From Escherichia coli (lineage in GTDB: Bacteria; Pseudomonadota; Gammaproteobacteria; Enterobacterales; Enterobacteriaceae): a DNA stretch of 64,000 nt. Both the position numbers and the translations under genes were made by a program. Shown one piece after another: positions 7,399-33,173 of the stretch. The stretch lies in assembly GCF_001677475.2 (NCBI RefSeq), contig NZ_CP015229.1. One strand, given 5' to 3'. Below the pieces are notes generated by a model. The model saw nothing but the letters and a program-made list of their open reading frames with translations. It ran no database searches and had not been told where the DNA came from. Positions within the stretch are counted from its first letter, which is position 1, and each line of letters begins with the position of its first letter.

Positions 7399-8412
<1,014 letters not shown>

Positions 8413-8710: not shown

Positions 8711-8748
8711 TTGCATAAAAATTCATCTGTATGCACAATAATGTTGTA
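8711..8748 (+). promoter_or_regulatory. Putative tandem ARG boxes (ArgR operator) overlapping the argR promoter
   Basis: tTGCATaaaaATTCAtc followed by a weaker ATGCAcaataATGTT repeat about 25 bp upstream of argR; matches the ARG-box half-site pattern TGAAT/ATTCA. Confidence 0.4.
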
Positions 8749-8768
8749 TCAACCACCATATCGGGTGA

Positions 8769-9242
<474 letters not shown>

Positions 9243-9606
9243 TCTCTGCCCCGTCGCTTCTGGCGGCGGGGAAAATGTTGCTTATCCCTCTCAACCCCCT
9301 GCTTTCCCCTGCGATTAATTTAACGAATAGTGCGTTTTACTGCGACATGTCATTCACACAATGAATACATACGGTAAAAAAAGCACATTATGCAAAATTC
9401 ATTATCTAATTGAAAATACTAGAATTAAAAATAAATAACCGTGTTTTTAATTCTTTTTTGTTATTAAAATTCACATTTTTAATACTTAGTATCAACTGAA
9501 ACAGTTAGCGTGGTATTAATTAGTTCAATAATTAGTGTATACTTGATTTTGTGATAAGGGTCACGAAACAAAGACCCAGCAAAAAGATTATGTTGAGGTA
9601 AAAATC

Positions 9607-9870
9607 ATGAAAATCAAAACCACTGTTGCTGCATTAAGCGTACTTTCTGTTCTCTCTTTCAGTGCATTCGCTGCCGACTCCATTGATGCTGCACAAGCAC
9701 AAAATCGTGAAGCAATCGGGACCGTATCCGTAAGTGGTGTGGCGTCTTCGCCAATGGATATGCGTGAAATGCTGAACAAAAAAGCAGAAGAGAAAGGCGC
9801 AACGGCCTACCAGATTACGGAAGCTCGTAGCGGTGACACCTGGCACGCTACGGCTGAACTGTACAAATAA
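9607..9870 (+). CDS. yhcN: Small periplasmic stress protein YhcN (DUF1471/YdgH-BhsA family)
   Basis: 87-aa ORF with signal peptide, preceded by a 360-bp AT-rich region. Confidence 0.85.
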   Translation: MKIKTTVAALSVLSVLSFSAFAADSIDAAQAQNREAIGTVSVSGVASSPMDMREMLNKKAEEKGATAYQITEARSGDTWHATAELYK

Positions 9871-9895
9871 ACCCTCATCGTCTTGTCCGACGATA

Positions 9896-9922
9896 TTGCC
9901 CCCGGTTCGGGGGCTTTTTTTT
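9896..9922 (+). terminator. Intrinsic terminator after yhcN
   Basis: gcccccggttcgggggc followed by tttttttt. Confidence 0.7.
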
Positions 9923-9925
9923 GCG

Positions 9926-10198
9926 CTAATGACGAACATTAAAACGCAAATGCCCTTCCAGCTCTTCCTCTGCCTCATCAAACAGCAATATTAACGCACC
10001 AAAACGGCGACGCGTTTTCTCTCCCAGATGAACAAATTCAATCTCAAGTGGTAGCGGCAGGACATCGTTCATTAACACATCCCATAGTGAGTCGAGATCG
10101 CGTACCTTATCTTTCGCCAGACCAAATGTTTGGCTAAAGTCACGATAAAAATCCTCCTGACTCTCAATCTCATCAAAATCAAAGGTATAAATATTCAT
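9926..10198 (-). CDS. yhcO: Barstar-like protein YhcO
   Basis: 90-aa acidic ORF recognised as YhcO. Confidence 0.85.
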
Positions 10199-10289
10199 CT
10201 GTTGCCACCGTCACGTTTCGCGGCGAGTTCTGCCGTGCATCGCTAAGTATAGCCATGAAAAAACCGACGCTTTTGGCGTCGGTTTTGAC

Positions 10290-12257
10290 TTAACTATCGG
10301 TCAACGCATGTTGATACTTATGGAGCATCCCCGCCAGCCGATGTACCGGTTCCGTCACCTGCGGTGGCGCTTGCCAGATGCGTAGCTTTTCCTGGTAGAT
10401 TTCCAGTTCTTCCAGCAACTGGCCAAAGTACCGACGACGTTTATCATCGCTACGGGCAGATATCACATGGTCTGCTGTGCGGCGCATTTGTCGGTGAAAC
10501 GCCGATAAATCCTCGTTAACCGGGATCGGCGCATCACGCAGGCGCTGGTGCGCGATAATCATCGTCAGCGCCAGGCGAAATTTCGGCAAATCCCCTGGGA
10601 ACTTATTCATCAGCAAAAACAGCTGCTGATAAAGTGCCGGGAGGTGGTTCTCTTTACGACGTGCCACATTGGTAGTCATCGCGGAAACAGCGGCAGAAAC
10701 AAACTGATTAAGCAGTACACGTCCAGTCCTGTCGCGCGATTTATCCCGCACCAGCAAAATAACGGTGAACGCGAGCACACAGCCGACGATTTGCCCTAAT
10801 GCGCTGTCGAGAAACTGACTGAAATGGAAAGTCATCGGGTTATCCAGCACGATAATATTTATGGTGCTGGCCAGTGCCCCCATCGAGCCCAGTCGCCGTT
10901 TCTGTACTTCTATACCGAGGAAGAATCCCAGCACTGCCAGGCTAATGCACAGCAGCAACATGCTCTGTTGGGTATTAGGGATAATCACCAAAAAGTAGAG
11001 CAGCCCTAACGGCAGCGCGGCCAGCGTCCCGTAGATAAAGTCGATCGCCACCATGCGTGGATTCGGCAAACGCATTGCCAGTGACGTCACTACCGCAATC
11101 ATCACCATTGCACCACTGCCGGAAGTCCAGCCCGTCCACAGCCAGAAAAGCGTGCCCAGAATGCAGGAAAGTGTGGTTCGCCAGAAGTTAACCATCGCAT
11201 GATGACGTTCGGCTGACTCTACTTTGACTTCCGGTTCGCCTTGCAGGATCTCTTCTTCGGTGGCGTTGATTTTTGTGTTACTGATAACGCCGCGCTTGAG
11301 AAGCTGATAACGCGTTGCCGCCGCAACCCAGCTATAAATGGTGACAGGCGTTTCCCGTTCCCCGGTCCAGGCGATCACTCTCCGCAGGCGTTTGAGCTGC
11401 TTGTGGACGTCCTGCGCGGTTTCTACCGGCGTGTCAAAAAATTCGCGGAAAGTATCAGTGATCAATTCCGGGCGCGTATTCTGAATAAGATAAGTTTCGC
11501 AGGATTGGGTAATCAGCGTCAGCGATAGCGTATTGATCGCTTTTAAACGTCGATTGGCCCGCGCCCAGCGGGAAGATTCCATATTCAGGTTGCTGCGCAT
11601 GCCTTGTAGCGCCGTGGTGCGTCGCACCAGGTCGCCCCAGGCTTTATCGACAACTTCACCATCGCCATGCTTGATACAGAGTTGCATTAATTGATATTGC
11701 GCGACGAGCAAACTTTCCAGCTCTCGATCCACTTCTTGTTTGATCGATCGCGGAGAAAAAAGCAAATCAGCCATAATCGCACACACAATACCGATAACGA
11801 TCTCGCTACAACGTTCGACAGCAAACTGCGGCGTAAGCAATGGTTCCGGCTGAATGGTGATCACAATGATCAGCGCGGTATAACCGGCCAGCCCCCACGC
11901 ATACGAGTTTTCTATTCGTACCAGCGAGGATATCCAGGTGCAAAAACCGGCCCAGATACAGCACACCAGAATCATCAATAATGGTGCGCGGATCATCGCA
12001 ATAATGATCACCAGTCCGGCAATACAGCCAATAAATGTGCCGATGATGCGCAAAAAGCCACGATAGCGTATCGCGCCAGAGTACGGTTCACCTCCCGCAG
12101 CAAAGGCCGGACCGGCGGCAACAATCGCCGCTGTCAGTACCGCCCAGCGTGGCGTTTCCAGCTGGAAGTGAAAGCCAACAAACAGCGCCAGTACAATGGC
12201 GGTCGCCAGTTTTACCGCAAAGCGAATATGTTGGTTAGCAATGGAGAAAATACCCAT
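10290..12257 (-). CDS. aaeB: p-Hydroxybenzoic acid efflux pump subunit AaeB
   Basis: 655-aa polytopic membrane protein; aaeXAB gene order. Confidence 0.93.
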
Positions 12258-12262
12258 CGTGA

Positions 12263-13195
12263 TTAACCAAACTCACGCAGGCGATGGGCCATTTTACGGA
12301 AGAACGAATCCTGGCTTTCGTCGCGATCTTGTTTGCCAGTGACCACCACTGTAGCAGTGGTGCCCGCAGGCCAGATGTTCTCTTGCTGGTTGTCGAGACG
12401 AATACGAACCGGAACACGTTGCGCCAAACGCACCCATTCAAGGTTAGAGTCGATGGTCGCCATCCCTTTGTCGTCACGCGTGCTGCTGGCGTTGGTGACC
12501 CCAGCGGCAACACTATCAACAGTCCCTTTCAGCACTTTGTTACTGCCAAGCGGCGTGATCTCTGCACGATACCCAGGGCGCACCCCTTCCAGCTTAGTTT
12601 CTTCCATATAGGCCAGTACATAGAAAGAGTTCTGTTTCACCAGCGCAACCGCCGTTGATCCACGAGTAATAAACTCACCGGTATAGACGTTGAGGTTGGT
12701 CACCCAGCCATCTGCTGGCGCGCGGATCACCGTGCGTTCAAGATCCAGTTTTGCCAGATCGCGGGTCGCCTGCGCTTTCGCTAACTGATGCAGAACCGTT
12801 TGTAGTACGTTGTTGGCCTGGTCTATCTCTTCGCGAGACATCGCCTGTATGCCGAGACGGTTACGACGTCCGGCCTCCTGTCGTTTTTCCTGTGCCAGCA
12901 CTTGATAATAAGCAACATCGGCTTGCGCTTCCTCGAGCGCCTTTTGATAGCGTGGCTGGTCGATGGTGAACAGTACCTGTCCTTTTTTCACCAGCTGGTT
13001 ATCATGAACATTTACCTGAGTAATGAGTCCGGATACGTCCGGCGCGATCGCAACGACGTCGGCGCTAAAGCGTGCGTCACGCGTCCACGGGGATTCGGTG
13101 TAATAGACCCAGGCATTAAAAATTGCGATGAAGGCCAGAATGACTAATACGACCGTGATGGCCGTACGGGAGAATTTTCTTATTAGTGTTTTCAC
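12263..13195 (-). CDS. aaeA: Efflux pump membrane-fusion subunit AaeA
   Basis: 310-aa ORF, N-terminal TM anchor, HlyD-like. Confidence 0.93.
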
Positions 13196-13202
13196 TTCAA
13201 CC

Positions 13203-13406
13203 TCAAACGAACAGTCGCGATATCAAATAAAACAAGCAGCAATAGAGCGCGGTGTTGAACAACGCCGGATGCCAGACAAAGTCGTAGATACCTGTTGGCA
13301 CAAGTACCCGGCGCACCAGCCAGAAAATCGCCAGTGATAAAAGCAATTCGAAAAATATCGGTGGGAAGGACAGCCCAAACACCACGATAACGGGAAACAG
13401 ACTCAT
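13203..13406 (-). CDS. aaeX: Small membrane protein AaeX
   Basis: ORF trimmed to the internal ATG giving 67 aa ([22 protein letters not shown]...). Confidence 0.8.
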
Positions 13407-13588
13407 GTTGACCTTGGTTGTATAGAGAGAGCAGGCGTTATTATTTTCAGCATCTGTCGCCGCAGAGAAGGGCATGGAAAGCCGGGCGAGAGCAACATTG
13501 CTGTAGATTGATATTTAATATATTAGCGTAACTGTTATGCTGTTATCTATATTATGTGATCTAAATCACTTTTAAGTCAGAGTGAATA

Positions 13589-14518
13589 ATGGAACGACTA
13601 AAACGCATGTCGGTGTTTGCCAAAGTAGTTGAATTTGGCTCTTTTACCGCCGCCGCCAGACAGTTACAGATGAGCGTTTCGTCCATCAGTCAGACGGTGT
13701 CAAAACTGGAAGATGAGTTGCAGGTAAAGCTGTTAAACCGTAGCACACGCAGCATTGGCCTGACCGAAGCCGGTAGAATTTACTACCAGGGCTGCCGTCG
13801 GATGCTTCATGAAGTGCAGGATGTTCATGAGCAACTGTATGCCTTCAATAACACCCCCATCGGGACGCTACGCATTGGCTGTTCTTCAACTATGGCACAA
13901 AATGTTCTCGCCGGGCTGACAGCCAAAATGCTGAAAGAATACCCAGGTTTGAGCGTCAATCTGGTTACCGGAATTCCTGCCCCCGACCTGATTGCCGACG
14001 GTCTGGATGTGGTGATCCGCGTCGGCGCGTTGCAGGATTCCAGCCTGTTTTCCCGCCGTCTTGGCGCGATGCCAATGGTGGTCTGCGCCGCGAAAAGCTA
14101 TCTCACACAATACGGCATACCGGAAAAACCCGCCGATTTAAGTAGTCATTCATGGCTTGAATACAGCGTACGACCCGACAATGAATTTGAACTGATCGCA
14201 CCGGAAGGGATCTCGACTCGCCTGATCCCGCAAGGGAGATTTGTGACTAATGATCCGATGACGCTGGTGCGCTGGCTAACGGCGGGCGCCGGGATCGCCT
14301 ACGTGCCGCTGATGTGGGTGATCAACGAGATCAATCGCGGGGAGCTGGAGATCCTGCTGCCACGTTACCAGTCAGATCCACGCCCGGTTTATGCGTTATA
14401 TACCGAAAAAGATAAGCTGCCGCTGAAGGTACAAGTCGTGATCAACTCGCTAACGGATTATTTTGTTGAGGTCGGTAAATTGTTTCAGGAGATGCACGGG
14501 CGCGGGAAAGAGAAGTAA
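13589..14518 (+). CDS. aaeR: LysR-family transcriptional activator AaeR
   Basis: 309-aa ORF with N-terminal LysR HTH, divergent from aaeXAB. Confidence 0.9.
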   Translation: MERLKRMSVFAKVVEFGSFTAAARQLQMSVSSISQTVSKLEDELQVKLLNRSTRSIGLTEAGRIYYQGCRRMLHEVQDVHEQLYAFNNTPIGTLRIGCSSTMAQNVLAGLTAKMLKEYPGLSVNLVTGIPAPDLIADGLDVVIRVGALQDSSLFSRRLGAMPMVVCAAKSYLTQYGIPEKPADLSSHSWLEYSVRPDNEFELIAPEGISTRLIPQGRFVTNDPMTLVRWLTAGAGIAYVPLMWVINEINRGELEILLPRYQSDPRPVYALYTEKDKLPLKVQVVINSLTDYFVEVGKLFQEMHGRGKEK

Positions 14519-14645
14519 TTCATATTGTACTGTTACGTTGTACAAACCTGTGCCAACGGGTTCCCCTCACCCTAACCCCAGAGGGGCGAGGGGACCGTTC
14601 GTGCACGTAGAAGGATTAATTATCCTTCTGAAAATACTGAAATTA

Positions 14646-16106
<1,461 letters not shown>

Positions 16107-16138
16107 TTAGTTACTGCAGTAGAGGATTTTTTACGGCT

Positions 16139-16175
16139 GCCGGATGCAGCGTGAACGCCCTATCCGGCCTACGGT
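16139..16175. repeat. REP (repetitive extragenic palindrome) element
   Basis: gccggatgcagcgtgaacgccctatccggcctacgg matches the canonical E. coli REP consensus. Confidence 0.6.
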
Positions 16176-16246
16176 TATGTTCTGGCTCGTTGGCCTTTGG
16201 CAACGATTATCATATGAGATTGGGGCAATTACGCGCCCTCGTCAAA

Positions 16247-19200
16247 TCATTGCGCTTTTTCTTTACGCGGTTGGCGCAACACTTCGTTGATTTGCGGATC
16301 GTCCAGCGGACCCGAAATGTGATAGCGCAAAATGGAGACTTTGCTCCACAGCGGCCCCAGCACTTTACTGGCGGCAAACACTGCCGCGCCAACAATAGGG
16401 TTAACCGCAAAAGCCGCAGCCACGCCCACCGTCGCAGAAATCTCTGGTGCGACAACCGCTTCCATATTCAGGTCGCGACGTACCAGATTTACCGACCCTT
16501 TCATGGCGATATCCGCTTCCAGGCCATCCACCAGCGTGTCGTCGGTGTGCATAACGCCGTCTTTAATCCACGCGGTGCTGCGAATGGAGTCAAAATAGAA
16601 CCCTTCGCCAAAAGTGTCTCTGAAATCAAAACGCAGCTTACGCATCAGGGCATCTACGCTCAATAAGCGCAGCAATTGCCCGGCATGTCCGGTGCTGATT
16701 TCGGTAATTTCGCCTTTGCCCAGTTGAGTATGAATGATGCCATTCAACGACGCCTCATCCGGCTGCCACGGTGCTTTGCGCCAGTGTAAATCGTAATCCA
16801 CATTAAATGACGACTGGCGTATGGGCGTCGTGACACCAAAAAATTCTGCGGCGGCATCAATTTTCTGCCCGCGCAGTTTTCCTTTCAGCGAGGTACGTTC
16901 ATTCCCCGGATTATTAACCCATTCACCATCGGCAGTAAGCCGCGAGAAACCAGTATCAATCAGTCCATTGGTCAGCGTTAACGTATCGCCAGAAATGGTG
17001 ATATCACTGTCAATGCGACCGAATTTTTGCCCCCAGAACCAGCACTCTGTGCATCGTATTTGTGCGTCCGGCCAGCCACGGAAGTTAATGCGCTCCGTTG
17101 TCGGGAAAGGTGATGACGGCGTTGAATCACCACGAGTTTTCGCCACGCTCGGGTTGTAATAAAGATATTTGATATTCGCCAGCCACGGCGCGTTATTACG
17201 CATCGCTAGCGTGGCGTTGATTTCACGCCCTTGCGCCTCCACCTGGGTGCCATTTGCCGTCGGTTGCGAAACAATACTCAGGTTATTCCATTGCTGATTT
17301 CCCAGTGACAACATAGGCGTACGTAACGTTATGTGTTGTGGGAAACTCGCTGCACCACCGACACTCTCCGCCGCGCCTTTCTGGAACAGGGCCAGCCACT
17401 CGGCACCATTCATCGGCGGCATATTGAGTTCAACGCCACTTTGTTCCGGCAACGGCGGGAGCGTTTTACTGTCTGCCGCCCAAATAGCACGATCGAGCGT
17501 CAGCTTTTGACCAAGCAACCAGCGGCTATTGAAATGGTTATCCGCACCAGCCTGTCCGGTTAACTCAAAGCTGTTGAGATTGCCATCAACCTTAACGTTT
17601 ACCGCTAGTGGTTCACCCGCAGGTTTGGCTAACGGTGAAGGTAAGTGACTGCTCACATTCTTCAGATCGCCGTTCAGCTCTACGTTATAGGTCGCGCCAG
17701 CATGATAAGGCAGATCAATGCCCACTTTACCATCCCACGCCACGCTGCCACTCAATGCTTCGTTCACCGCTTCAGGCAGAACGCCGGTTTTCGCCGGTTG
17801 CCAGTTACCGTTGAGGTTTACCGCTACCTGGTAGGCTTTTGCCCCTTCTTTGGTGGAAAAATCCACGTTCAACGGCTGATTAAACCAGCTTGCTGTCAGT
17901 GGTTCACTTTGCAGATCGCCATTGATAAAGCTGAATTTACCGCTCAAATTTTTCAGGGTGCTGTCGAGTGGTTTGATAAACAGACTGTTATTACGCAGCG
18001 TCACTTCACCTTTCGCGGTTACCAGCTCGCCGTTCAGCGGGATATCAAGATGTAAGCGAGCATTCACATCGCCGTCGAGCTGGAGTTCTTGCAGGGTCGC
18101 ACCCAGAGAATCTTTCAGCGGTGTCTCATCAAAGTAAGGGCCAACGGCTTTACCCGGACCTTTAATGTCAGCGTCAATCAGCAGTTTTTCTTTTGAGTAG
18201 TCAGGGATCACTGCTGTGAGATTACTCGCGCGCACGCCGCCCAGATTAACGCCATCGGTTTTCATCCATAAACCGTCGTTAATAAAGTCCAGTTCAATAT
18301 CAAGGTTAGTTAATGCAGGCCAGTCCGGCTGGAAGGCAAACTTCGCGTTGCGCAGCGGCACCAGCACTTCAAACTGACCTTCGTTGTGTTTATAGGGGAA
18401 GAGTTGCGGATTGCCACCATAAACCAGCGTCGCGTTATCCGCTTCACCGCCCTGAATCGCGCCACTTAAGTAATCAACCAGGTCTTTACCCATCAAGTTT
18501 TCCGGGAAATAGCGCCAGGCTTGTGAACCATCATCGGTACTGATGCCAGCCAGAATACCCAGCCAGGGTTCATCGTTAGCAGGTTGCAGGTAACGAAAAC
18601 CGCCGCGCGCATGGACGGCTTTGGCTTTAACGTCAATATTACGCCCATCCAGCTGGAAACCTTTGTCATTGTTCAGCCAGCTTATAGTTGCCTGGCCGTC
18701 GGCGATTTCCAGTGGCGCACGGAATACCGTTTCGTAAGGCATCTTTGCCTGCTTCATCGACGCAGTAAGCAAACCATTTTCAACGCTGCCGGAAAGCGTC
18801 CCGGAGAAGTGTTCCGCACCCGGTAATAATTTCCATTGCTTCCAGGCCAGATCGCTCCACGATGCCTGAAAACGGGTCTTGTCTGCCGCCTGAAGCGGGA
18901 TATCCAGCGCCAGAGTGTTAATCTTGCCGCTCGGTTGTGTGGAGCGCCAAACATCACCCAGTGCAGGTGAAAGTTTCGCGGCCAGCGGGCGTATGCCCTC
19001 CAGGCCTGCCAGCTCCAGATTACTGGCGCGAATCCGGAGTTCGTCACTGCGTTTATTGTCTTTGCCGCCAACGTCCTGTTCCGGTATCCAGGCCAGCGTC
19101 AATGCTCCGCTCGGCCAGGGTTTGCCGTCCATCGTGATCCGTGTATCGGGAATAGAGAACTGCCAGCCCGGATTTTCACGCGTAATATGCGCGGTCAGAT

Positions 19201-20047
19201 TATCCACCGACAGCGTATGCGTTTGCTTCTCGCCCAACCAGCTGGCACCGCCCTGTTTCAGCCAGACGTCACCGCCGGTTACATCGCCTTTGTCGATCGT
19301 CATCCAGCCTTCAAGGGAGAACTGTGCCGTTTCCAGCGCAATATTGTCCTGCATCCATTTACCGAGCCACGGCTTCAGGTCGATGTCATCCGCCTGGAGC
19401 CAGACGCGACCATTGCTTAACAACCCCTCATCATCGCGCAAATCCATGCGCACCTGCATCACGCCGTGCTGTCCGGTAAGGCTGGAGAGGCTTACCAGAC
19501 CTTCCGCACGGTGTCGACGTGGATCGTTCAGCCAGGTGAGTTGTGGGATCGCCAGCTCGGCGCGCTGACCGGATGGCGTCAGGAAACTGACTTCACTGTC
19601 GCGGAGATCGAAATGGTCAAATTGACGAAGAAACAGATCGCTGATGTGACTGGCTTCCAGACTGTCATCACTACCACCGCTGGTGATAGGAGTGTTGGTG
19701 CGAAAACGCAGCTGCCAGAAAGTGAGGTCGCGAAACTGCCAGCGCATATGTAACAGGCTCTGCCAGACATCCAGCGCCAGAGTAACGCGTTTAACCGAAA
19801 ATTCGCCGCCATCTTTTAGTTCTGCACGGATGTCGTGTGCTTCAAGCGTCGGGCCAAAATTCTGCCAGCTGGCTGAGAGCTGACTGGCTTCTACCGGCAT
19901 GCCAGTCGCGGATTCTATTTTGTTGAGGATTTCCGGACGCCAGGCGTCAAGATGCGGTAAAGCAATACGCAGGCCGCTAACCAGCAGGGCAGCGATCACA
20001 ACGAACGCGGCTCCAGTAAGCAGTAAAATCCCCGGCAATCGCCTCAC
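16247..20047 (-). CDS. yhdP: AsmA-family envelope protein YhdP (intermembrane phospholipid transport)
   Basis: 1266-aa ORF with N-terminal TM anchor, recognised as YhdP. Confidence 0.93.
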   Translation of the reverse strand: MRRLPGILLLTGAAFVVIAALLVSGLRIALPHLDAWRPEILNKIESATGMPVEASQLSASWQNFGPTLEAHDIRAELKDGGEFSVKRVTLALDVWQSLLHMRWQFRDLTFWQLRFRTNTPITSGGSDDSLEASHISDLFLRQFDHFDLRDSEVSFLTPSGQRAELAIPQLTWLNDPRRHRAEGLVSLSSLTGQHGVMQVRMDLRDDEGLLSNGRVWLQADDIDLKPWLGKWMQDNIALETAQFSLEGWMTIDKGDVTGGDVWLKQGGASWLGEKQTHTLSVDNLTAHITRENPGWQFSIPDTRITMDGKPWPSGALTLAWIPEQDVGGKDNKRSDELRIRASNLELAGLEGIRPLAAKLSPALGDVWRSTQPSGKINTLALDIPLQAADKTRFQASWSDLAWKQWKLLPGAEHFSGTLSGSVENGLLTASMKQAKMPYETVFRAPLEIADGQATISWLNNDKGFQLDGRNIDVKAKAVHARGGFRYLQPANDEPWLGILAGISTDDGSQAWRYFPENLMGKDLVDYLSGAIQGGEADNATLVYGGNPQLFPYKHNEGQFEVLVPLRNAKFAFQPDWPALTNLDIELDFINDGLWMKTDGVNLGGVRASNLTAVIPDYSKEKLLIDADIKGPGKAVGPYFDETPLKDSLGATLQELQLDGDVNARLHLDIPLNGELVTAKGEVTLRNNSLFIKPLDSTLKNLSGKFSFINGDLQSEPLTASWFNQPLNVDFSTKEGAKAYQVAVNLNGNWQPAKTGVLPEAVNEALSGSVAWDGKVGIDLPYHAGATYNVELNGDLKNVSSHLPSPLAKPAGEPLAVNVKVDGNLNSFELTGQAGADNHFNSRWLLGQKLTLDRAIWAADSKTLPPLPEQSGVELNMPPMNGAEWLALFQKGAAESVGGAASFPQHITLRTPMLSLGNQQWNNLSIVSQPTANGTQVEAQGREINATLAMRNNAPWLANIKYLYYNPSVAKTRGDSTPSSPFPTTERINFRGWPDAQIRCTECWFWGQKFGRIDSDITISGDTLTLTNGLIDTGFSRLTADGEWVNNPGNERTSLKGKLRGQKIDAAAEFFGVTTPIRQSSFNVDYDLHWRKAPWQPDEASLNGIIHTQLGKGEITEISTGHAGQLLRLLSVDALMRKLRFDFRDTFGEGFYFDSIRSTAWIKDGVMHTDDTLVDGLEADIAMKGSVNLVRRDLNMEAVVAPEISATVGVAAAFAVNPIVGAAVFAASKVLGPLWSKVSILRYHISGPLDDPQINEVLRQPRKEKAQ

Positions 20048-20114
20048 CCGTCACTCCTTGTCTGCTAAAAATGTGACTCAAAAACCCTTTGCCGGATGGC
20101 GGCCCAGCATCTGT

Positions 20115-21584
20115 TTACATCATTACGACGTCAAACTGCTCCTGGTTATAGAGCGGTTCAATTTGTACTTTAACCTGTTTGCCAACGAAAATTTCCACTT
20201 CCGCCAGCGAGTGTGACTCTTCGCCTTTCAAGGCTTCAGCTACTGCCGGAGAAGCATAGACCAGGAAACGGTCGGAGTCGTAAGCATGGTGGACACGAAC
20301 AATCTCGCGCATGATTTCATAGCATACCGTTTCCACGGTTTTCACCGTTCCGCGACCGTGGCAGGTTGGGCATTCGTTACACAGTACGTGCTCAATGCTT
20401 TCGCGGGTGCGTTTACGCGTCATCTCCACCAGCCCCAGCGCCGAAAAACCATTAACGCTGGTTTTCACCCGGTCTTTGCTCAACGCCTGCTCTAGCGAAT
20501 GCAGCACGCGGCGGCGGTGATCTTCATTATTCATATCGATGAAATCAATAATGATAATCCCGCCCAGATTACGCAACCGTAACTGGCGAGCGATAGCCTG
20601 CGTCGCTTCAATATTGGTATTGAAAATGGTGTCGTCCAGATTGCGATGACCGACAAACGCCCCGGTATTGATGTCCACGGTGGTCATCGCTTCGGTCTGG
20701 TCGATAATCAGATAGCCACCAGATTTCAGTTCTACTTTGCGTTCCAGCGCTCGCTGGATTTCGTTTTCGACATCAAAGAGATCGAAAATCGGCTGGCGTC
20801 CGGTGTAATGCTCCAGCTTGCTGGTCATCTCGGGAATGTACTCCGAGGTGAACTCAAGTAATGCTTCGTAAGTCAGGCGTGAGTCAACGCGAATGCGGTC
20901 CAGTTCGGCGTCGGCGAAATCACGCAGAACACGCTGAGCCAGCGCCAGTTCGCCGTACAGCTGATAACGGGTCTGCGGGCGTTTTTTACGCTCCATAACT
21001 TTGGTCCAGACGCGTTTCAGATAAGCGGCATCGGAGGCCAGTTCAGCCTCGCCAACCCCTTCCGCTGCGGTACGGATGATAAACCCGCCCTGCTCGTCGC
21101 AATACTCTGCGACCACTTTTTTCAAGCGTTCACGTTCTGATTCGCTTTCAATACGTTGGGAAACCCCAACGTGAGAAGCCCCTGGCATAAAGACCAGATA
21201 GCGAGAAGGCAGCGTGATATCGGTGGTCAGGCGCGCACCCTTAGTGCCAAGCGGATCTTTCACCACCTGCACCATCAGATCTTGCCCCTGACGGACCAGC
21301 TCCGAGATATCGCGTACCGTGAATTGCTTTTGTTCTTCACCCGCCACACATTCGGTGTGCGGCATGATGTCGGATGCATGAAGAAACGCGGCTTTATCCA
21401 GCCCAATATCTACAAAAGCCGCCTGCATACCCGGAAGTACACGACTTACACGACCCTTGTAGATATTGCCTACTATTCCGCGTCGCGCCTCACGTTCAAT
21501 ATGAATTTCCTGCAGAATACCGCCATCAATATACGCCACTCGCGTTTCCGAAGGCGTTACGTTTACCAACAATTCAGCCGTCAT
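20115..21584 (-). CDS. rng: Ribonuclease G
   Basis: ORF trimmed to ATG giving 489 aa ([26 protein letters not shown]...). Confidence 0.93.
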
Positions 21585-22167
21585 GTTTATCCCTTTTCTC
21601 ACGCAGTGCGTTAAAATTACTTAATAATTCATACGTTTCAACCAGCGGTAAGCCGACTACGGCGTGATAGCTGCCATTTATCTTCCTGACAAAACAGCCA
21701 CCCAGCCCCTGAATACCGTATGCACCTGCTTTATCTAACGGTTCACCGCTGGCGACATAGCCCGCGATGTCTTCGTCTGTTAACGTTCTGAAAGTCACAT
21801 CGGTGACCACCAGGCAATCGAGAATGTGCTGGCTGTCGGCCAACGCCACTGCCGTCATCACCTGATGGGTCTGACCCGATAATTTGCGCAACATCTGCGC
21901 CGCATGCTCTGCGTCGCGCGGTTTCTCCAGCACTTCTCCGTTCAGGATAACGATAGTATCCGCACCCAGCACCGGGAGACCCTTCGCCGTTTGCGCGACA
22001 CCTGCCCGTGCTTTCTCGCGCGCCAGACGCACAACATACTGCTGCGCGCTCTCCTGCGGCTGACGCTGCTCCTCAATGCCCGTAACAATACGTTCAAAGG
22101 TCACGCCAAGTTGCGCAAGTAACTCCTGACGACGCGGAGAACCGGAAGCTAAATACAGAGAAGTCAT
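21574..22167 (-). CDS. yhdE: Maf-family nucleoside triphosphate pyrophosphatase YhdE
   Basis: ORF trimmed to ATG giving 197 aa ([17 protein letters not shown]...); 3' end overlaps the rng start by 11 nt. Confidence 0.9.
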
Positions 22168-22175
22168 AGAAACCT

Positions 22176-23767
<1,592 letters not shown>

Positions 23768-23832
23768 AAGTTATGCGTATTCTCGTATCAGACCAGGCAG
23801 GGTAAACAGACACTTCCCCTGCCTGCATCCGA

Positions 23833-25002
<1,170 letters not shown>

Positions 25003-25180
25003 TTACAAATCTCTGCCTGAGTCCAGAAAGGCTTAATGCATCAGCAGCATTCCTCGCCTGTTTGCAACCGCGTAAGGTCATTCATCTGCATATGTGCTGC
25101 AACAATCTGGCGAGCAGACAAGCACACTCCCATGAGACGCAGCGCGCGTTATTCTACGTGAAAACGGATTAAACGGCAGG

Positions 25181-27121
25181 TTAAACCGAGTATCTTTGTG
25201 AATATTTTTTCACGTTAGTATCAAGTGGCTGTGAGGACGCGAAAAAATCCCCTTGCCCACCTGTAACACCGCGCTGAATCAGGGTCTGCCACTCGCTTCG
25301 CGAACGCACGCCGGTGGCGTAAACCTGGGTGCTGGTCCCGGAGCAGGCTTCCACCAGGCTTTGAACCAGCAGCTGGTTCTCCGTTCGCTTCTCAATGTTT
25401 CTGACCAGCCCCGGATGGAGCTTGAGTAACTCAACATTAAGTTCTTTGATCCAACTGGTGCTAACCAGCGTCAAACCAGCCTGGTTGACGGCTACCCGTA
25501 CCCCTAAAGCATTCACTAAACGAATAACAGGTTGTAAACGACTGATATGTTGACCTACATCGGCCTCTGCAAGTTCAATAATTATGCGTTTTCGTTGTGA
25601 TTTTTCACATTGCATTAACGTATCGCGCAGCCAACGCTGAAAACGCGGGCGAATCAGCGACTCAACGGTAACCTGAATCGCCAGATTTTCCTCCGGCCAG
25701 TAACGCAATAGTGGAATCAGACGGCTGATTTGCAGGCGGTCATACTCTTCCGATAAGCCAAACTGCAAGACCATCGGCATATACTCCGCCGAGCTAACCT
25801 CTTCGTTACCATCGAAGATGCGGCACATGAGTTCGCGATGATGAACCTGACCTTCGCGAGTAACCGCCGGTTTTTGATAAAGGCGCGGGCCGCCGCGACT
25901 GAGCATTTGCTCGATAAGCGTACGCCAGCGAACATTACCGCGTCCTTTTTCAGGCAACGAGTCATCGTAAATAGCCCAGCTATTGCCGCCCTGCAATCCC
26001 GCATTACGCGTGGCAGACTCTGCATGTTCCATTACCTGCTCGGTATCCTGACCACTACGCCAGGCACAGATACCAATGTGGATCATATCGTCGCGATCGA
26101 GCATTTTATTGTTCGGCAAGGTATCGACGGCTTTGATTAACTGACTGGCTATGCTCTCAGCCTCTTTTAACGTCCGGTGGGGCAACAGCGCAGCAAAATC
26201 ACTGCGGTGGTAACGCGCCAGCAGTGCGCCAGGGTAGCGCATCATAAATGTCGACAGCAGATTCGTCAGAGAGAAGAACTGTTCTTCAACCTGGCTGTGC
26301 CCCCAGGTATCACTCAACATATTGAAATCCGGCAGACGAATCATCATCACGATCCCGTGGGTACCTACTTTCTCTTGATCTTCCAGTAACGTTGCTAACT
26401 GATTATCGAAAAAGAGTCGGTTATTGAGGCCGGTTTTCATGTCCTGGGCGGCATAAGAGCGGATCAGCGTATCAAGACGGCTGTGTTGTTCGCGTGCGTT
26501 CTGAATTTCACGAAGCAGCGTATCCAGCGCACTGCTGGTTCTGGGCGGCCATTCATAGATGGTTCCCAACACATTAGAGCCACGCTCACCGTTTAAGATA
26601 CGAGTAGCCCGGGTTTCCAGCAATTCTTGCCCGGCAAGTTGCCGTTGTAACCAGCGTACCGCCAGGAAGAGCATAAGAATGATAAAGCCAATCGCCCCCG
26701 TGAGCGGCGCGGTGGTCATCAACGAATGGAAATAGTTGCCCATCGGATCCTGATAAACCAGACGCAGCGACATCCCCGGATGCTTTATCAACGGAACGCT
26801 CAGTTCGCGAAACAGATCGCTGGTGCCAACCGGACGATAACTACCATTTCTGGCGAGGGTATAAACCTGTTTATCACCATGCAGCAGGTCTACACGAACG
26901 ATATCTGCTGACACCATTAATTCGGTAATTTGTGGCCTTAATGCGCTGAAGTCATTCGACACAAGGTGGGTATCAATCGCCGTCGCCACCGCCTGAACGC
27001 GATGACTAAACTTATACTGAATGGCGTTGTAGAAACTTAGCGAACAGCCCAGCAAAGTCACAAAAATTGTTAACCCGGTGAGCAGCGTAACAAAGGCCGA
27101 AAATTTCGTCGTTAATCTCAT
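25181..27121 (-). CDS. csrD: CsrB/CsrC turnover factor CsrD (degenerate GGDEF-EAL protein)
   Basis: 646-aa ORF with two N-terminal TM segments, recognised as CsrD (YhdA). Confidence 0.93.
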   Translation of the reverse strand: MRLTTKFSAFVTLLTGLTIFVTLLGCSLSFYNAIQYKFSHRVQAVATAIDTHLVSNDFSALRPQITELMVSADIVRVDLLHGDKQVYTLARNGSYRPVGTSDLFRELSVPLIKHPGMSLRLVYQDPMGNYFHSLMTTAPLTGAIGFIILMLFLAVRWLQRQLAGQELLETRATRILNGERGSNVLGTIYEWPPRTSSALDTLLREIQNAREQHSRLDTLIRSYAAQDMKTGLNNRLFFDNQLATLLEDQEKVGTHGIVMMIRLPDFNMLSDTWGHSQVEEQFFSLTNLLSTFMMRYPGALLARYHRSDFAALLPHRTLKEAESIASQLIKAVDTLPNNKMLDRDDMIHIGICAWRSGQDTEQVMEHAESATRNAGLQGGNSWAIYDDSLPEKGRGNVRWRTLIEQMLSRGGPRLYQKPAVTREGQVHHRELMCRIFDGNEEVSSAEYMPMVLQFGLSEEYDRLQISRLIPLLRYWPEENLAIQVTVESLIRPRFQRWLRDTLMQCEKSQRKRIIIELAEADVGQHISRLQPVIRLVNALGVRVAVNQAGLTLVSTSWIKELNVELLKLHPGLVRNIEKRTENQLLVQSLVEACSGTSTQVYATGVRSRSEWQTLIQRGVTGGQGDFFASSQPLDTNVKKYSQRYSV

Positions 27122-27272
27122 CCTTGTGTTAACTCCGATAGTGAGGAAGCGGGCATACTAGCAAATCAGATTTATCTCGCAATTTATTGCGCTTCATCGG
27201 CTTTGCTTTTCCATTAGCGAGTATAGTCTTCAGAAATTATTTTCCAATCCATCATGCACATGAGGACCACTT

Positions 27273-28247
27273 ATGCAGGCGTTACTTTTAGAACAGCAGG
27301 ACGGCAAAACTCTCGCATCAGTACAGACTCTGGACGAAAGTCGCCTGCCGGAGGGCGATGTCACGGTTGATGTTCACTGGTCGAGCCTGAACTACAAAGA
27401 TGCGCTGGCAATTACCGGTAAGGGAAAAATCATCCGTAATTTTCCGATGATTCCTGGGATCGATTTTGCCGGAACTGTACGCACCAGCGAAGATCCGCGT
27501 TTTCATGCCGGTCAGGAGGTGTTACTCACTGGCTGGGGCGTTGGTGAAAACCACTGGGGGGGGCTGGCGGAACAGGCGCGAGTGAAAGGTGACTGGCTGG
27601 TTGCCATGCCGCAAGGGCTGGACGCACGTCAAGCAATGATTATCGGTACTGCCGGTTTTACCGCCATGCTGTGTGTGATGGCGCTGGAAGATGCCGGTGT
27701 TCGCCCGCAGGATGGGGAGATTGTCGTGACGGGTGCCAGTGGTGGCGTCGGCAGTACCGCCGTGGCGCTGCTGCATAAGTTGGGTTATCAGGTCGTTGCC
27801 GTTTCTGGTCGCGAAAGTACCCATGAATATCTGAAAAGTTTAGGAGCCAGCCGTATTCTCTCTCGCGATGAGTTTACCGAATCCCGTCCTCTGGAAAAAC
27901 AACTCTGGGCTGGGGCAATTGACACCGTTGGCGACAAAGTGCTGGCGAAAGTGCTAGCGCAAATGAATTACGGCGGCTGCGTGGCGGCCTGTGGTCTGGC
28001 GGGTGGTTTTACTCTGCCAACCACGGTCATGCCATTTATTCTGCGTAATGTCCGTTTACAGGGGGTGGATTCAGTGATGACGCCACCAGCACGCCGCGCA
28101 CAAGCCTGGCAGCGACTGGTCGCCGATTTACCGGAATCATTCTATACCCAGGTGGCACAAGAGATATATCTGGCAGAGGCACCGAAGTTTGCCGAGGCCA
28201 TCATTAATAACCAGATCCAGGGTCGCACGCTGGTGAAGGTTAACTAA
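27273..28247 (+). CDS. acuI: Acrylyl-CoA reductase AcuI (YhdH), MDR-family oxidoreductase
   Basis: 324-aa ORF with NADPH-binding GASGGVG. Confidence 0.93.
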   Translation: MQALLLEQQDGKTLASVQTLDESRLPEGDVTVDVHWSSLNYKDALAITGKGKIIRNFPMIPGIDFAGTVRTSEDPRFHAGQEVLLTGWGVGENHWGGLAEQARVKGDWLVAMPQGLDARQAMIIGTAGFTAMLCVMALEDAGVRPQDGEIVVTGASGGVGSTAVALLHKLGYQVVAVSGRESTHEYLKSLGASRILSRDEFTESRPLEKQLWAGAIDTVGDKVLAKVLAQMNYGGCVAACGLAGGFTLPTTVMPFILRNVRLQGVDSVMTPPARRAQAWQRLVADLPESFYTQVAQEIYLAEAPKFAEAIINNQIQGRTLVKVN

Positions 28248-29224
28248 CCATTTAGCAAGGATTAATAAGAGAGGGAACTCATTTTGAAATCATTATTCAA
28301 TCGGTTAACGGGAAAAGCGGTTAGCCGGACAGCTTTCGTCGAACATCTTGGTCATGAAGTTGTACAACATCATCCAAACTGGAAAGTCATGATTTCGACA
28401 GACCATACATTGATGCGCATTGAAACTCCACTAAACAGCCATTATTGATACGCCTCCGTCGCCTGTTAGGTTTATGGTGCTTTGCCTGGGCGACGCTACG
28501 CTTAACCTGTTACTGATTTCTGGTACCATGGGGTGAATAATCTGATTTTATTTGCCTACAAATTAACCACTCGAACGTATTTGATGCTGAGCATTGTCAG
28601 ACGGTTGATTTTGCGTGCTTTAGCATTCACATCTATCCAGACGATGAAGTGAAAATTGCGTAATCCTCAGCAACCGCTGCGTAATGTCGTCTATCTTGTC
28701 GCGATCCTGGCATCCCTACATTATTTGTGGTCTGTGAAGATTATCTCATTGCAGCCCCTCATCTTCGCAGGGCTGGCTTTACAGCTTTTAGCCTTACGTT
28801 ATAAGAAGTTCCGTCGATGATGGCGCTAATTTCGTGAGTTGTGCGGCTTGTTGCAAATTACACGGTGTTGAAGGTTATTTACATGTTAGCTGTTGATTAT
28901 CTTCCCTGATAAGACCAGTATTTAGCTGCCAATTGCTACGAAATCGTTATAATGTGCGACCTCGTTCTCCCTGACGCAGTTTTTGCGCTGCGGAAAAGGT
29001 GACATTGGCGCAACGAAGGTATATTTTGTTTTTTGCCGGAGGATAGCAGCAGATCGCTGCACAATGTCCGTCAAGTCTAACATTGACACTCTGGGGCAAA
29101 ATAGACCGGCGTCCCGGCCTGCTGGAATTTATCGCTATGCATACAGCTGTCGGGGCATACGCTTTACAGACGGCGGTGAAACGCCTGTCACAATCACACT
29201 AAACAAAGAGTACGGAACCCACTC

Positions 29225-29695
29225 ATGGATATTCGTAAGATTAAAAAACTGATCGAGCTGGTTGAAGAATCAGGCATCTCCGAACTGGAAATTTCTGAAG
29301 GCGAAGAGTCAGTACGCATTAGCCGTGCAGCTCCTGCCGCAAGTTTCCCTGTGATGCAACAAGCTTACGCTGCACCAATGATGCAGCAGCCAGCTCAATC
29401 TAACGCAGCCGCTCCGGCGACCGTTCCTTCCATGGAAGCGCCAGCAGCAGCGGAAATCAGTGGTCACATCGTACGTTCCCCGATGGTTGGTACTTTCTAC
29501 CGCACCCCAAGCCCGGACGCAAAAGCGTTCATCGAAGTGGGTCAGAAAGTAAACGTGGGCGATACCCTGTGCATCGTTGAAGCCATGAAAATGATGAACC
29601 AGATCGAAGCGGACAAATCCGGTACCGTGAAAGCAATTCTGGTCGAAAGTGGACAACCGGTAGAATTTGACGAGCCGCTGGTCGTCATCGAGTAA
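29225..29695 (+). CDS. accB: Biotin carboxyl carrier protein of acetyl-CoA carboxylase
   Basis: 156-aa ORF, biotinylation motif EAMKMMN, Ala/Pro-rich linker. Confidence 0.97.
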
Positions 29696-29705
29696 CGAGG
29701 CGAAC

Positions 29706-31055
29706 ATGCTGGATAAAATTGTTATTGCCAACCGCGGCGAGATTGCATTGCGTATTCTTCGTGCCTGTAAAGAACTGGGCATCAAGACTGTCGCTGTGCA
29801 CTCCAGCGCGGATCGCGATCTAAAACACGTATTACTGGCAGATGAAACGGTCTGTATCGGCCCTGCTCCGTCAGTAAAAAGTTATCTGAACATCCCGGCA
29901 ATCATCAGCGCCGCTGAAATCACCGGCGCAGTAGCAATCCATCCGGGTTACGGCTTCCTCTCCGAGAACGCCAACTTTGCCGAGCAGGTTGAACGCTCCG
30001 GCTTTATCTTCATCGGCCCGAAAGCAGAAACCATTCGCCTGATGGGCGACAAAGTATCCGCAATCGCGGCGATGAAAAAAGCGGGCGTCCCTTGCGTACC
30101 GGGTTCTGACGGCCCGCTGGGCGACGATATGGATAAAAACCGTGCCATTGCTAAACGCATTGGTTATCCGGTGATTATCAAAGCCTCCGGCGGCGGCGGT
30201 GGTCGCGGTATGCGCGTAGTGCGCGGCGACGCTGAACTGGCACAATCCATCTCCATGACCCGTGCGGAAGCGAAAGCTGCTTTCAGCAACGATATGGTTT
30301 ACATGGAGAAATACCTGGAAAATCCTCGCCACGTCGAGATTCAGGTACTGGCTGACGGTCAGGGCAACGCTATCTATCTGGCGGAACGTGACTGCTCCAT
30401 GCAGCGCCGCCACCAGAAAGTGGTCGAAGAAGCACCAGCACCGGGCATTACCCCGGAACTGCGTCGCTACATCGGCGAACGTTGCGCTAAAGCGTGTGTT
30501 GATATCGGCTATCGCGGTGCAGGTACTTTCGAGTTCCTGTTCGAAAACGGCGAGTTCTATTTCATCGAAATGAACACCCGTATTCAGGTAGAACACCCGG
30601 TTACAGAAATGATCACCGGCGTTGACCTGATCAAAGAACAGCTGCGTATCGCTGCCGGTCAACCGCTGTCGATCAAGCAAGAAGAAGTTCACGTTCGCGG
30701 CCATGCGGTGGAATGTCGTATCAACGCCGAAGATCCGAACACCTTCCTGCCAAGTCCGGGCAAAATCACCCGTTTCCACGCACCTGGCGGTTTTGGCGTG
30801 CGTTGGGAGTCTCATATCTACGCGGGCTACACCGTACCGCCGTACTATGACTCAATGATCGGTAAGCTGATTTGCTACGGTGAAAACCGTGATGTGGCGA
30901 TTGCCCGCATGAAGAATGCGCTGCAGGAGCTGATCATCGACGGTATCAAAACCAACGTTGATCTGCAGATCCGCATCATGAATGACGAGAACTTCCAGCA
31001 TGGTGGCACTAACATCCACTATCTGGAGAAAAAACTCGGTCTTCAGGAAAAATAA
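29706..31055 (+). CDS. accC: Biotin carboxylase
   Basis: ORF trimmed to ATG 29706 giving 449 aa ([25 protein letters not shown]...). Confidence 0.97.
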
Positions 31056-31103
31056 TTTGTGACGCGCGGTGTTTTCATCGCGCTTAGCAAAGAACGTAAT
31101 CAA

Positions 31104-31136
31104 CGCCGGGCCTGTTAACGCTGCCCGGCGTTTTTA
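31104..31136 (+). terminator. Intrinsic terminator of the accBC operon
   Basis: cgccgggc-ctgttaacgct-gcccggcg followed by ttttta. Confidence 0.7.
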
Positions 31137-31146
31137 TTGCCGTTAG

Positions 31147-32193
31147 CTAACGGTAGCCTGCAATTTCCGCTTTCAACGCGCTCATTTCAGCATCGCCATC
31201 AACAATTCCCAGCTCAAAGCAGTATTTCTTTGTTTCCCCTGGCTCTATAAAGGGCAGACGCCCCTGCGCTCGTTCTTTATCACGACCGTCAGGAAAACTA
31301 TTGCTGACCTCCAGCCCCATAACATATTCACCCGCGCCTAAATTTTTCCACTGGATAAAGTTGGGTAGCTGCATGGTGTCGAATTTCTCGTAAATTCCCC
31401 ACCCCAGTTCAGCGTTCACCAGCGCAATTTTACTCATCCCCTGACTGTCGCTATTCAAGGTGAGATAGTAAACCTGCTCGTCAAAACCGGGCTGTGGGGT
31501 ACAAATCTCCAGATGACTGGTTAACCCTTCCGCCGCATGCGGAGTTCGTGGCGTTACGCTTTTAGCCGACAGCAAGATTTCTGCCTGTGGCGATAATAAA
31601 GGCCAGCCGTAATTAAAGTGATAAAGAATTTGCAGCGGCTGGCGGGTGAAACCATGATTAGTCACCTCGTCTTCAATGCGCAGCACATTTTCGCCATAAC
31701 GGCAGCGAATGGTCCTTTCCAGCGTCAGATTTTCACCGAACAATCGCGTTTCCCGTACTTTGCCATTGATGACAAATTCAATGCCGTCGTCGGTCCGTTC
31801 TGTGCGATACCCCACCTCTTCTGCTGGAGTCGCAGCCAAACGCCCATGTAACCCCAGCGTTTCTCCTTCATCCTCACAGGGCGTGCCAATGTAGCTAAGT
31901 CCGCAGGTAGTCAGTAACCCCGCGTAAAAGCTACGTAAAAACCCGTTGCCCTGAGACTCGAAAAAAGCGGGGGCGACAATGCCGTTGGGGGTGATAAAAG
32001 AGAGCGCAGTGTCCTTGTAGCTGGCCCATGCAATATCCAGCGCGCGATCTTTTACCACCGTAAATGCCAGTCCCGCACCAGTACGGACATCAAACGCTTC
32101 TGTACCCTTTGCTCTGCCACTACGTAACTCATAGTGTTTAATTCCGGCAACCTGCGAGAGATCGCCAATCCACGACCAAATTTCGTTTTTCAT
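31147..32193 (-). CDS. Island gene: conserved protein of unknown function, galactose-mutarotase-like / possibly DUF4432 family
   Basis: 348-aa ORF; start overlaps the stop of the upstream kinase gene by 4 nt (ATGA); no TM or signal peptide. Family assignment is from pattern recognition only and is low confidence. Confidence 0.7.
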   Translation of the reverse strand: MKNEIWSWIGDLSQVAGIKHYELRSGRAKGTEAFDVRTGAGLAFTVVKDRALDIAWASYKDTALSFITPNGIVAPAFFESQGNGFLRSFYAGLLTTCGLSYIGTPCEDEGETLGLHGRLAATPAEEVGYRTERTDDGIEFVINGKVRETRLFGENLTLERTIRCRYGENVLRIEDEVTNHGFTRQPLQILYHFNYGWPLLSPQAEILLSAKSVTPRTPHAAEGLTSHLEICTPQPGFDEQVYYLTLNSDSQGMSKIALVNAELGWGIYEKFDTMQLPNFIQWKNLGAGEYVMGLEVSNSFPDGRDKERAQGRLPFIEPGETKKYCFELGIVDGDAEMSALKAEIAGYR

Positions 32194-33152
32194 TGTGCTG
32201 CTTCCCGAATGGACATGTCATGGCGCTGGATGAACGTTTCGATTTCCGCAAGGCGAGACGTTCCCTCCATTGGGCCACGTCGGGTAACAGCCAGTGCACC
32301 GCAGGCGTTGGCATATTGTAATGCCCGATGGGCGTCAAACCCTAGCTGGCGGCAGGCAATCCACGCGCCACCAAAGCAGTCTCCCGCACCGGTCGGGTCA
32401 ACTTCTTCCACCGGATAGCTCTCAACATGAAACTGCTCATTCGCGGAGTAGTAACTGGCTCCTTGATTGCCGCGCTTCACAATCACCTCTTTAACACCTT
32501 CTTCAAGAAAACCAGCGATTGCACGCTCCGGCGTCGAATGTGGCGACAAGAGCAACACTTCGCCCTCGCTGGGCATATAGATATCCGTTAACTCAAGAAC
32601 AAAGTGGAGGGCGTCACGCATTTCTGGAATATCGAGCATCTCTTTTCGAATATTAGGGTCGAAAGAAATAACACCACCATTTGCTTTAACGATGGTTACC
32701 GCTTTTTTTACTGCGTCTACCATATGAAACGAAAACAGGGATGAACCCATAATATGAAAATGGGTACAGTCCTTCAGAATATTTTCATCAACATGCTGCG
32801 CCGATAATTTACCGCAAGCGGCATTCTTGATATTAAAAATAAAATCGCGATCGCCAGAGTTATGATAAGTAACAAAGGCGCTCCCGGTAGCTTCCAGAGG
32901 TAAGACTGAAATCCCCCTGATATCCACACCGTCAGCAGCCAGACGATGTATATTAATATCACCAAAGCCATCATTCCCCACACAGCTAATGATGCCGCAC
33001 GGAACGCCAAGACGTGTCACCTGGTCGATAAAAATAGCGGGCGCACCACTGGGATAAGGGCCGTTCCAGATACCTGGTTGATCAAATGGCTGGCCGATTT
33101 TACTCGCCATAATTTCAACCAAAATTTCTCCAATTGTGAAGACCTTACTCAT
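32190..33152 (-). CDS. Island gene: pfkB/ribokinase-family carbohydrate kinase (kinase 1)
   Basis: 320-aa ORF with pfkB signature DPTGAGDCFGGAW near the C-terminus and an N-terminal Gly-rich substrate lid. Confidence 0.85.
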   Translation of the reverse strand: MSKVFTIGEILVEIMASKIGQPFDQPGIWNGPYPSGAPAIFIDQVTRLGVPCGIISCVGNDGFGDINIHRLAADGVDIRGISVLPLEATGSAFVTYHNSGDRDFIFNIKNAACGKLSAQHVDENILKDCTHFHIMGSSLFSFHMVDAVKKAVTIVKANGGVISFDPNIRKEMLDIPEMRDALHFVLELTDIYMPSEGEVLLLSPHSTPERAIAGFLEEGVKEVIVKRGNQGASYYSANEQFHVESYPVEEVDPTGAGDCFGGAWIACRQLGFDAHRALQYANACGALAVTRRGPMEGTSRLAEIETFIQRHDMSIREAAQ

Positions 33153-33173
33153 ATGATTAATTCCTTGAAATGA

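Follow-up and report, generated by a model that had tools for sequence, protein, structure and literature searches.

Terminal gene overlaps at the rng/yhdE and yrdA/yrdB junctions of an Escherichia coli chromosome segment

Two gene pairs in a segment of the Escherichia coli chromosome share nucleotides at their ends, rng/yhdE on the same strand and yrdA/yrdB in convergent orientation, and both raise the question of whether such overlaps are ordinary products of gene-end evolution and whether the shared letters also bear on expression, through translational coupling in the first pair and antisense interference in the second. Very probably both are ordinary overlaps of gene ends that became fixed; in the anatomy that they share, the C-terminal tail of one gene, itself poorly conserved, lies over the conserved terminus of its neighbour. 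Both overlaps are already known, being annotated, tabulated or listed in published work, and the analysis of their conservation and phase adds detail to this knowledge and no new kind of feature.

The window, namely the whole stretch of 64,000 nucleotides that was analysed, is an Escherichia-type chromosome segment with 98.5–99.5% identity to complete E. coli genomes, and its gene run includes sspB/sspA, aaeXAB/aaeR, tldD, yhdP, rng, yhdE, mreDCB, accBC, panF, fis, acrEF, rrnD, yrdA, yrdB, aroE, and tsaC. Based on annotation transferred from close genomes, with the overlapping pairs spot-checked in the window, 5 of 41 co-directional and 1 of 7 convergent CDS pairs overlap. The co-directional cases are rng/yhdE (11 nt), yhdT/panF (11 nt), mreD/mreC (1 nt, at 22664), an aldose epimerase/sugar kinase pair (4 nt, 32190..32193), and yrdB/aroE (4 nt, 62376..62379 on the minus strand), in which the aroE stop and the yrdB start share GTGA. 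The most common overlap length in E. coli is by far −4, followed by −1 and −8 (PMC10666635); rng/yhdE and yrdA/yrdB are on the long side, yet within the normal repertoire and statistically not unusual. The homologous loci indicate that both are evolutionarily conserved.

The yhdT/panF overlap (39951..39961, ATGCAGCTTGA; gene pair 39719..41402), which is listed as −11 in K-12 (supplement of PMC10666635), was absent from an earlier note on this DNA. Between accC and yhdT the window also carries an accessory island of ~8.7 kb (approx. 31100..39650) with genes for an aldose 1-epimerase, two sugar kinases, an ABC sugar transporter, a tagatose-bisphosphate-type aldolase, and a DeoR regulator; the island is absent from E. 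coli 042, and of 5426 complete E. coli genomes only 1403 cover 80% or more of a 25-kb query containing it.

The rng/yhdE junction

The rng gene (20115..21584, minus strand) is a single clean ORF of 489 aa with an ATG start and the same extent in RefSeq, encoding RNase G with the Pfam S1 and RNase_E_G domains and a thioredoxin-like domain. The yhdE gene (21574..22167, minus strand), likewise a single clean ORF and annotated as yhdE in RefSeq, encodes a Maf-type nucleoside triphosphate pyrophosphatase of 197 aa. The two genes share the 11 nt ATGACGGCTGA (21574..21584, minus strand), which run from the rng start codon (ATG, 21584..21582) to the yhdE stop codon (TGA, 21576..21574) and are read in two different frames: the yhdE frame is AAA AGG GAT AAA CAT GAC GGC TGA (K-R-D-K-H-D-G-stop) and the rng frame is ATG ACG GCT GAA (M-T-A-E). 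The earlier note had reported this same-strand overlap and placed the rng start inside the 3' end of yhdE; both statements are exact, as sequence, ORFs, and RefSeq agree and the ATG lies upstream of the yhdE stop, and with nucleotides shared on one strand the two genes are a co-directional overlapping pair. The identical 11-nt overlap is found in the RefSeq annotation of E. coli 504239, 042, and N3, and the K-12 neighbour table gives −11 for yhdE/rng (PMC10666635, supplementary file 3).

The Pfam Maf domain covers residues 4–184 of YhdE and the last 13 residues (185–197) form a tail beyond it, so that the overlap and the rng ribosome-binding region fall in the extra-domain tail. Within the yhdE codons K-R-D, 5 nt before the rng AUG, lies the sequence AAGGGA (21590..21595, minus strand), a putative Shine-Dalgarno (SD) sequence of rng with a purine-rich counterpart at equal distance in relatives. 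Almost all of 120 close relatives have a YhdE C-terminus of the form ...R-D-x-[HY]-D-G, a pattern that is the yhdE-frame reading of the AAGGGA motif plus the conserved rng codons. The YhdE tail as such is a non-conserved extension. It carries the putative rng ribosome-binding site, rng codons 1–3, and two bases of codon 4, and its last residues, [HY]-D-G-stop, are dictated by the conserved rng codons M-T-A-E.

Enterobacter, Citrobacter, and Trabulsiella loci contain ATGACGGCTGA unchanged, and a relative with 70% YhdE identity keeps an 11-nt overlap with the sequence ATGACTGCTGA. Relatives with 50–70% identity were reached by a profile-free representative search, the word-indexed homologue search having returned only relatives with at least 85%. 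At 50–60% YhdE identity the order mreC-mreD-maf-rng is kept with junctions of −8, −4, −4, −4, +18, and +57, distances that in metagenomic or distant loci rest on gene-caller start predictions. An overlap of 4–11 nt is retained in five of seven distant relatives, and the maf-rng distances of +18 and +57 in some relatives show that the overlap is not required; one further distant Maf (P0160) has no rng downstream and carries no information on the junction.

All relatives examined keep the RNase G N-terminus M-[ST]-x-E-[LI]-L-[VI]-N-V, which supports the AUG as the start. Further in-frame candidates are a TTG at 21572 and an upstream GTG (21600..21602, minus strand), which would add the extension VRKGIN- and bring the overlap to 29 nt. 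The GTG, at −18, has no SD upstream and is conserved in three Enterobacteriaceae loci because it lies within the YhdE R-E codons (CGT GAG). Both the GUG and the AUG of rng are reportedly used in vivo, a result said to come from Briant et al. in 2003 and Chung et al. in 2010. A search of the literature for a GTG-extended RNase G N-terminus found nothing relevant beyond one indirect mention; an "extended form of RNase G" is mentioned in PMC3082872. Since start codons are predictions, and rng has these two alternatives, one or both overlaps could in principle be annotation artefacts, due to a wrong start or an over-extended ORF. Such a reading is scarcely credible and largely refuted: the stop codons are unambiguous, which makes the yrdA/yrdB overlap independent of the start choice; the YrdA chain of PDB entry 3TIO extends to residue 184; distant relatives keep both the rng AUG and the residues that precede E-[LI]-L; and a GTG start would enlarge the overlap, not abolish it. 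Start sites that remove the rng/yhdE overlap appear unlikely, because relatives share the rng AUG as well as the N-terminal pattern M-[TS]-x-E-[LI]-L and the only upstream alternative leads to a longer overlap.

The rng and yhdE genes have been described as members of the mre operon (PMC4319933), and the earlier note had cautiously proposed that they are translationally coupled. The AAGGGA in the last yhdE codons, together with the termination of yhdE 8–10 nt past the rng AUG, makes coupling possible: a ribosome finishing yhdE would terminate 8–10 nt downstream of this AUG, beside an exposed SD, and part of rng translation would probably be coupled to yhdE by re-initiation or by a locally raised ribosome concentration; the remaining rng translation would start independently at the SD. 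The proposal is reasonable, and partial coupling is likely, if only by a modest degree, on the strength of this arrangement of signals. The stop-start range treated as predictive of termination-reinitiation is −8..+10 nt (PMC10666635), and rng/yhdE at −11 falls marginally outside it, one codon from −8; the other mark of coupled pairs, a downstream SD inside the upstream CDS, is present at 21590..21595. Folding of the initiation region predicted no structure that sequesters the rng SD or AUG (z = +0.31), so that any coupling would stem from ribosome proximity or re-initiation and not from the unmasking of a hairpin. YhdE and RNase G form no known complex ("CMPLX not" in the table of PMC10666635), which leaves coupling without a stoichiometric rationale.

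The last two findings also fit a neutral history, in which the overlap is a by-product of stop-codon loss, coupling is absent, and rng is translated entirely de novo, either at its own SD or on a transcript beginning inside yhdE. We regard this as possible but rather doubtful, and the same holds for the independent rng source that it invokes. It agrees with the SD-like AAGGGA that rng itself possesses and the lack of structure in the initiation region, with a maf-rng junction that spans −11 to +57 in relatives, and with the stop-codon-mutation model that explains many overlaps (PMC2174442); against it, the native overlapping E. coli pairs that were tested proved tightly coupled, the last 15 nt of the upstream gene being sufficient (PMC10666635), most distant relatives still overlap by 4–11 nt, and the minus strand of yhdE yielded no promoter-like site. 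Partial coupling superimposed on an ordinary overlap remains the preferred reading. Apart from confirming correct gene boundaries, the overlaps have mostly housekeeping value, as in locus editing, where a yhdE deletion would take out the ribosome-binding site and the start codon of rng.

Coding constraints in the yrdA/yrdB overlap

The yrdA gene (61592..62146, plus strand; 184 aa; RefSeq yrdA) encodes a gamma-carbonic-anhydrase-like hexapeptide-repeat protein whose residues 2–184 are matched by PDB 3TIO, and yrdB (62122..62379, minus strand; 85 aa, GTG start; RefSeq yrdB) encodes a DUF1488 protein. The genes overlap tail to tail by 25 nt (62122..62146, both strands) with their third codon positions facing, and as opposite-strand CDSs with common 3' ends they form a convergent overlapping pair. 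The extent given for it in the earlier note is exact, with sequence, ORFs, and RefSeq in agreement, and RefSeq annotates the overlap identically in E. coli 042. The yrdA gene ends in ...GAT CAA GGT AAC CAG ACC CAA CCT TGA (stop ending at 62146) and yrdB, on the minus strand, in ...GAT CAA GGT TGG GTC TGG TTA CCT TGA (stop ending at 62122); in the window both proteins have the common C-terminal pattern D-Q-G-x4-P-stop.

The conservation of the pair was followed in 81 sequences, consisting of the window and 80 loci found with YrdB, one genome per species; these loci belong almost entirely to Enterobacteriaceae, joined by Pantoea sp. IMH and Mixta. In 76 of the 81 the overlap has a length of exactly 25 nt, at YrdB identities down to 62%; two others have 40 nt, two have 19 nt, and one has a disrupted yrdA. 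The last is Kluyvera genomosp. 3 (CP022114.1), where yrdA seems disrupted, residues 1–109 matching before an early stop, while yrdB remains intact together with the stretch that formed the overlap. The record CACSKA010000021.1, which bears the label Chryseobacterium sp. 18061, contains a typical enterobacterial yrdB/yrdA with 69% YrdB identity and a 25-nt overlap, and is probably due to assembly contamination or mislabelling.

In the notation of PMC2174442 the overlap is in phase 123:213, in which the third codon positions coincide. The variation is concentrated at the third positions common to both genes, namely 7, 13, 19, and 22 (entropy 1.3–1.75 bits), and most other positions are invariant or nearly so. 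The non-third positions that vary are silent or conservative in YrdB and radical in YrdA: position 9 gives synonymous Leu codons (TTA/CTA) in yrdB and N/S in yrdA, and position 15 gives V/I/L/F in YrdB and T/I/S/N in YrdA. The Pfam DUF1488 domain extends over YrdB residues 5–84 (profile positions 1–82 of 82), and in YrdA the alignment with homologues of solved structure stops at about residues 170–179. The reach of DUF1488 to residue 84, together with this alignment limit and the pattern of variation, indicates that YrdB sets the constraint and that the YrdA octapeptide is a passenger; the YrdB tail lies inside the conserved domain and the YrdA tail is a non-conserved extension.

The yrdA frame runs 25 nt into the antisense of the last eight yrdB codons, where its stop TGA is supplied by the complement of the conserved yrdB D-Q codons (GAT CAG); the yrdB stop TGA in turn complements three yrdA bases, namely the third of the D/S/A codon and the first two of the Gln codon. 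As the stops are mutually complementary in context (TCAGG/CCTGA), each locks the other and both are fixed, and the pairing of third positions lets both tails drift synonymously. The pair is a clean small example of overlap freezing, with complementary stops and paired third positions, in which one protein has a passenger tail that takes up the constraint of the other; for locus editing, it follows that an altered yrdA 3' end changes the conserved YrdB C-terminus.

Hairpin, terminator, and antisense readings of the convergent overlap

A perfect inverted repeat, GATCAAGGT / ACCTTGATC, with a 9-bp stem and an 11-nt loop (62120..62148, both strands) brackets the overlap exactly and could be taken for a functional RNA hairpin within both coding ends, serving to terminate transcription in both directions, to stabilise 3' ends, or as a site for RNase III. 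Perfect repeats of at least 9 bp are indeed enriched in the window (53 register hits against a shuffle mean of 4), several of them lie in intergenic gaps where terminators are expected, by position alone, and two scans of both strands detected no other intrinsic terminator within several hundred nt downstream of yrdA or yrdB. Nevertheless, a hairpin function is highly improbable. Across the 76 sequences with a 25-nt overlap (the window and 75 other genomes) the contiguous Watson-Crick stem ranges from 1 to 9 bp, mostly 3–7, over a loop of 11–15 nt; 61 of the 76 have an A.C mismatch at pair 6:20, no compensatory changes or covariation were seen among them, and only Escherichia has the 9-bp form. 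Conservation is limited to the TCAGG/CCTGA core, for which the complementary stop codons and the coding constraints account fully. The folding z-scores of −0.98 and −0.37 are no better than those of shuffles, and the element differs from a bidirectional intrinsic terminator in having 4 G-C pairs out of 9, a loop of 11 nt, a U-tract on neither strand, and no conservation; neither of the two terminator scans called it. The palindrome was consequently rejected as a conserved hairpin or bidirectional terminator.

A second perfect repeat, TCTGGCGTATC / GATACGCCAGA, with an 11-bp stem and an 11-nt loop, lies inside yrdB (62231..62263), 85 nt past the yrdA stop. It was likewise rejected as a conserved structure, being perfect only in Escherichia and free of covariation, with a CTGGCG/CGCCAG core in about 50 of the 81 sequences. 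Rfam gave no match at gathering score in positions 1..55700 of the window and, near yrdA, nothing but the 5' end of the rRNA and a Ysr197 match below threshold. The match to this Yersinia sRNA (61241..61482, minus strand, upstream of the 16S rRNA) scored 85 bits against a gathering score of 167, and is most likely the conserved rrn operon leader and not an sRNA gene.

The earlier note had held that the shared 3' ends force convergent transcription, with possible antisense interference. The first part is not correct, since the orientation of yrdA and yrdB is simply convergent and is not imposed by the overlap; the second, as a hedged suggestion, is reasonable, and an antisense effect is plausible from the arrangement. 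Transcription of both genes through their stop codons yields at least 25 nt of complementary mRNA, and with no intrinsic terminator after either gene the mRNAs must overlap, probably far beyond 25 nt. This is consistent with published RNA-seq, in which yrdA-yrdB is one of 165 convergent excludons of MG1655 obtained with ExcludonFinder and detected in at least 50% of 58 data sets (PMC12288877). Two further sites of the window are of the same type: yhdU (plus) and acrS (minus) are convergent with a 2-nt gap (45144..45147), so that their transcripts must also overlap, and aaeR-tldD is on the published excludon list (PMC12288877).

A stronger proposal is that yrdA and aroE-yrdB repress each other's transcription, by polymerase collision or through the cutting of the duplex by RNase III, and that this regulation conserves the arrangement. 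The presence of the pair on the MG1655 list (PMC12288877), the conservation of the arrangement across the sampled, mostly Enterobacteriaceae, genomes, and the lack of detectable terminators between the two genes would suit it; the interlocked coding constraints, on the other hand, are sufficient to explain the conservation, and both the regulatory role and either of its mechanisms seem unlikely. Fixation by coding constraint, with an antisense effect as a plausible consequence, is the reading that we retain.

The surroundings of the pair are as follows. The 4-nt GTGA overlap of aroE and yrdB makes yrdB the end of the aroE transcription unit, and in E. coli 042 dprA-smg-yrdD are found further upstream of tsaC-aroE-yrdB. 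Between the tsaC-aroE-yrdB run and the rrnD operon, both on the minus strand, yrdA is the sole gene on the plus strand, and the stretch from yrdB to the rrnD promoter region showed no intrinsic terminator. It can be imagined that the exceptionally stable 25-nt overlap is kept for a function beyond coding, the head-on transcription of yrdA acting as a collision or duplex barrier that would limit read-through from tsaC-aroE-yrdB into rrnD or reciprocally tune aroE/yrdB against yrdA. We consider both the barrier and these effects highly improbable, and the rrnD role in particular speculative; if an excludon or insulator of this kind were real, it would connect the aroE operon and read-through into rrnD with the expression of a gamma-carbonic-anhydrase-like gene.

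Comparison with known overlaps and excludons

Among the known systems, rng/yhdE is closest to the short overlaps (−4 ATGA, −1, −8) that support translational coupling through termination-reinitiation in E. coli (PMC10666635), which it resembles in strand, in operon context, in the location of the rng SD within the last yhdE codons, and in the few nucleotides between the yhdE stop and the rng start. It differs from them in its overlap of 11 nt, just past the −8..+10 range, and in its products, which are not known complex subunits. Within the window its nearest counterpart is yhdT/panF (39951..39961), with an equal length of 11 nt and an equal frame relation (ATGnnnnnnTGA); in this pair a small membrane protein precedes its cognate transporter, which makes a functional link more plausible than for yhdE/rng.

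The convergent pair follows the stop-mutation overlaps of Lillo and Krakauer 2007 (PMC2174442), since the C-terminus of YrdA is extended to the next in-frame stop and the extended tail, as in their model, is non-conserved. Unlike the usual cases, it is in phase 123:213, the least frequent of the three phases, which accounts for 22% of E. coli convergent overlaps >4 bp (PMC2174442), and its length is unusually stable across the genera sampled. With the excludons of PMC12288877, among which it is itself listed, it shares the convergent orientation and the lack of an intergenic space and of a terminator between the genes; however, the intergenic distance of those pairs averages 95 nt and their overlaps usually involve 3' UTRs, whereas yrdA-yrdB overlaps by 25 nt within the coding sequences themselves.
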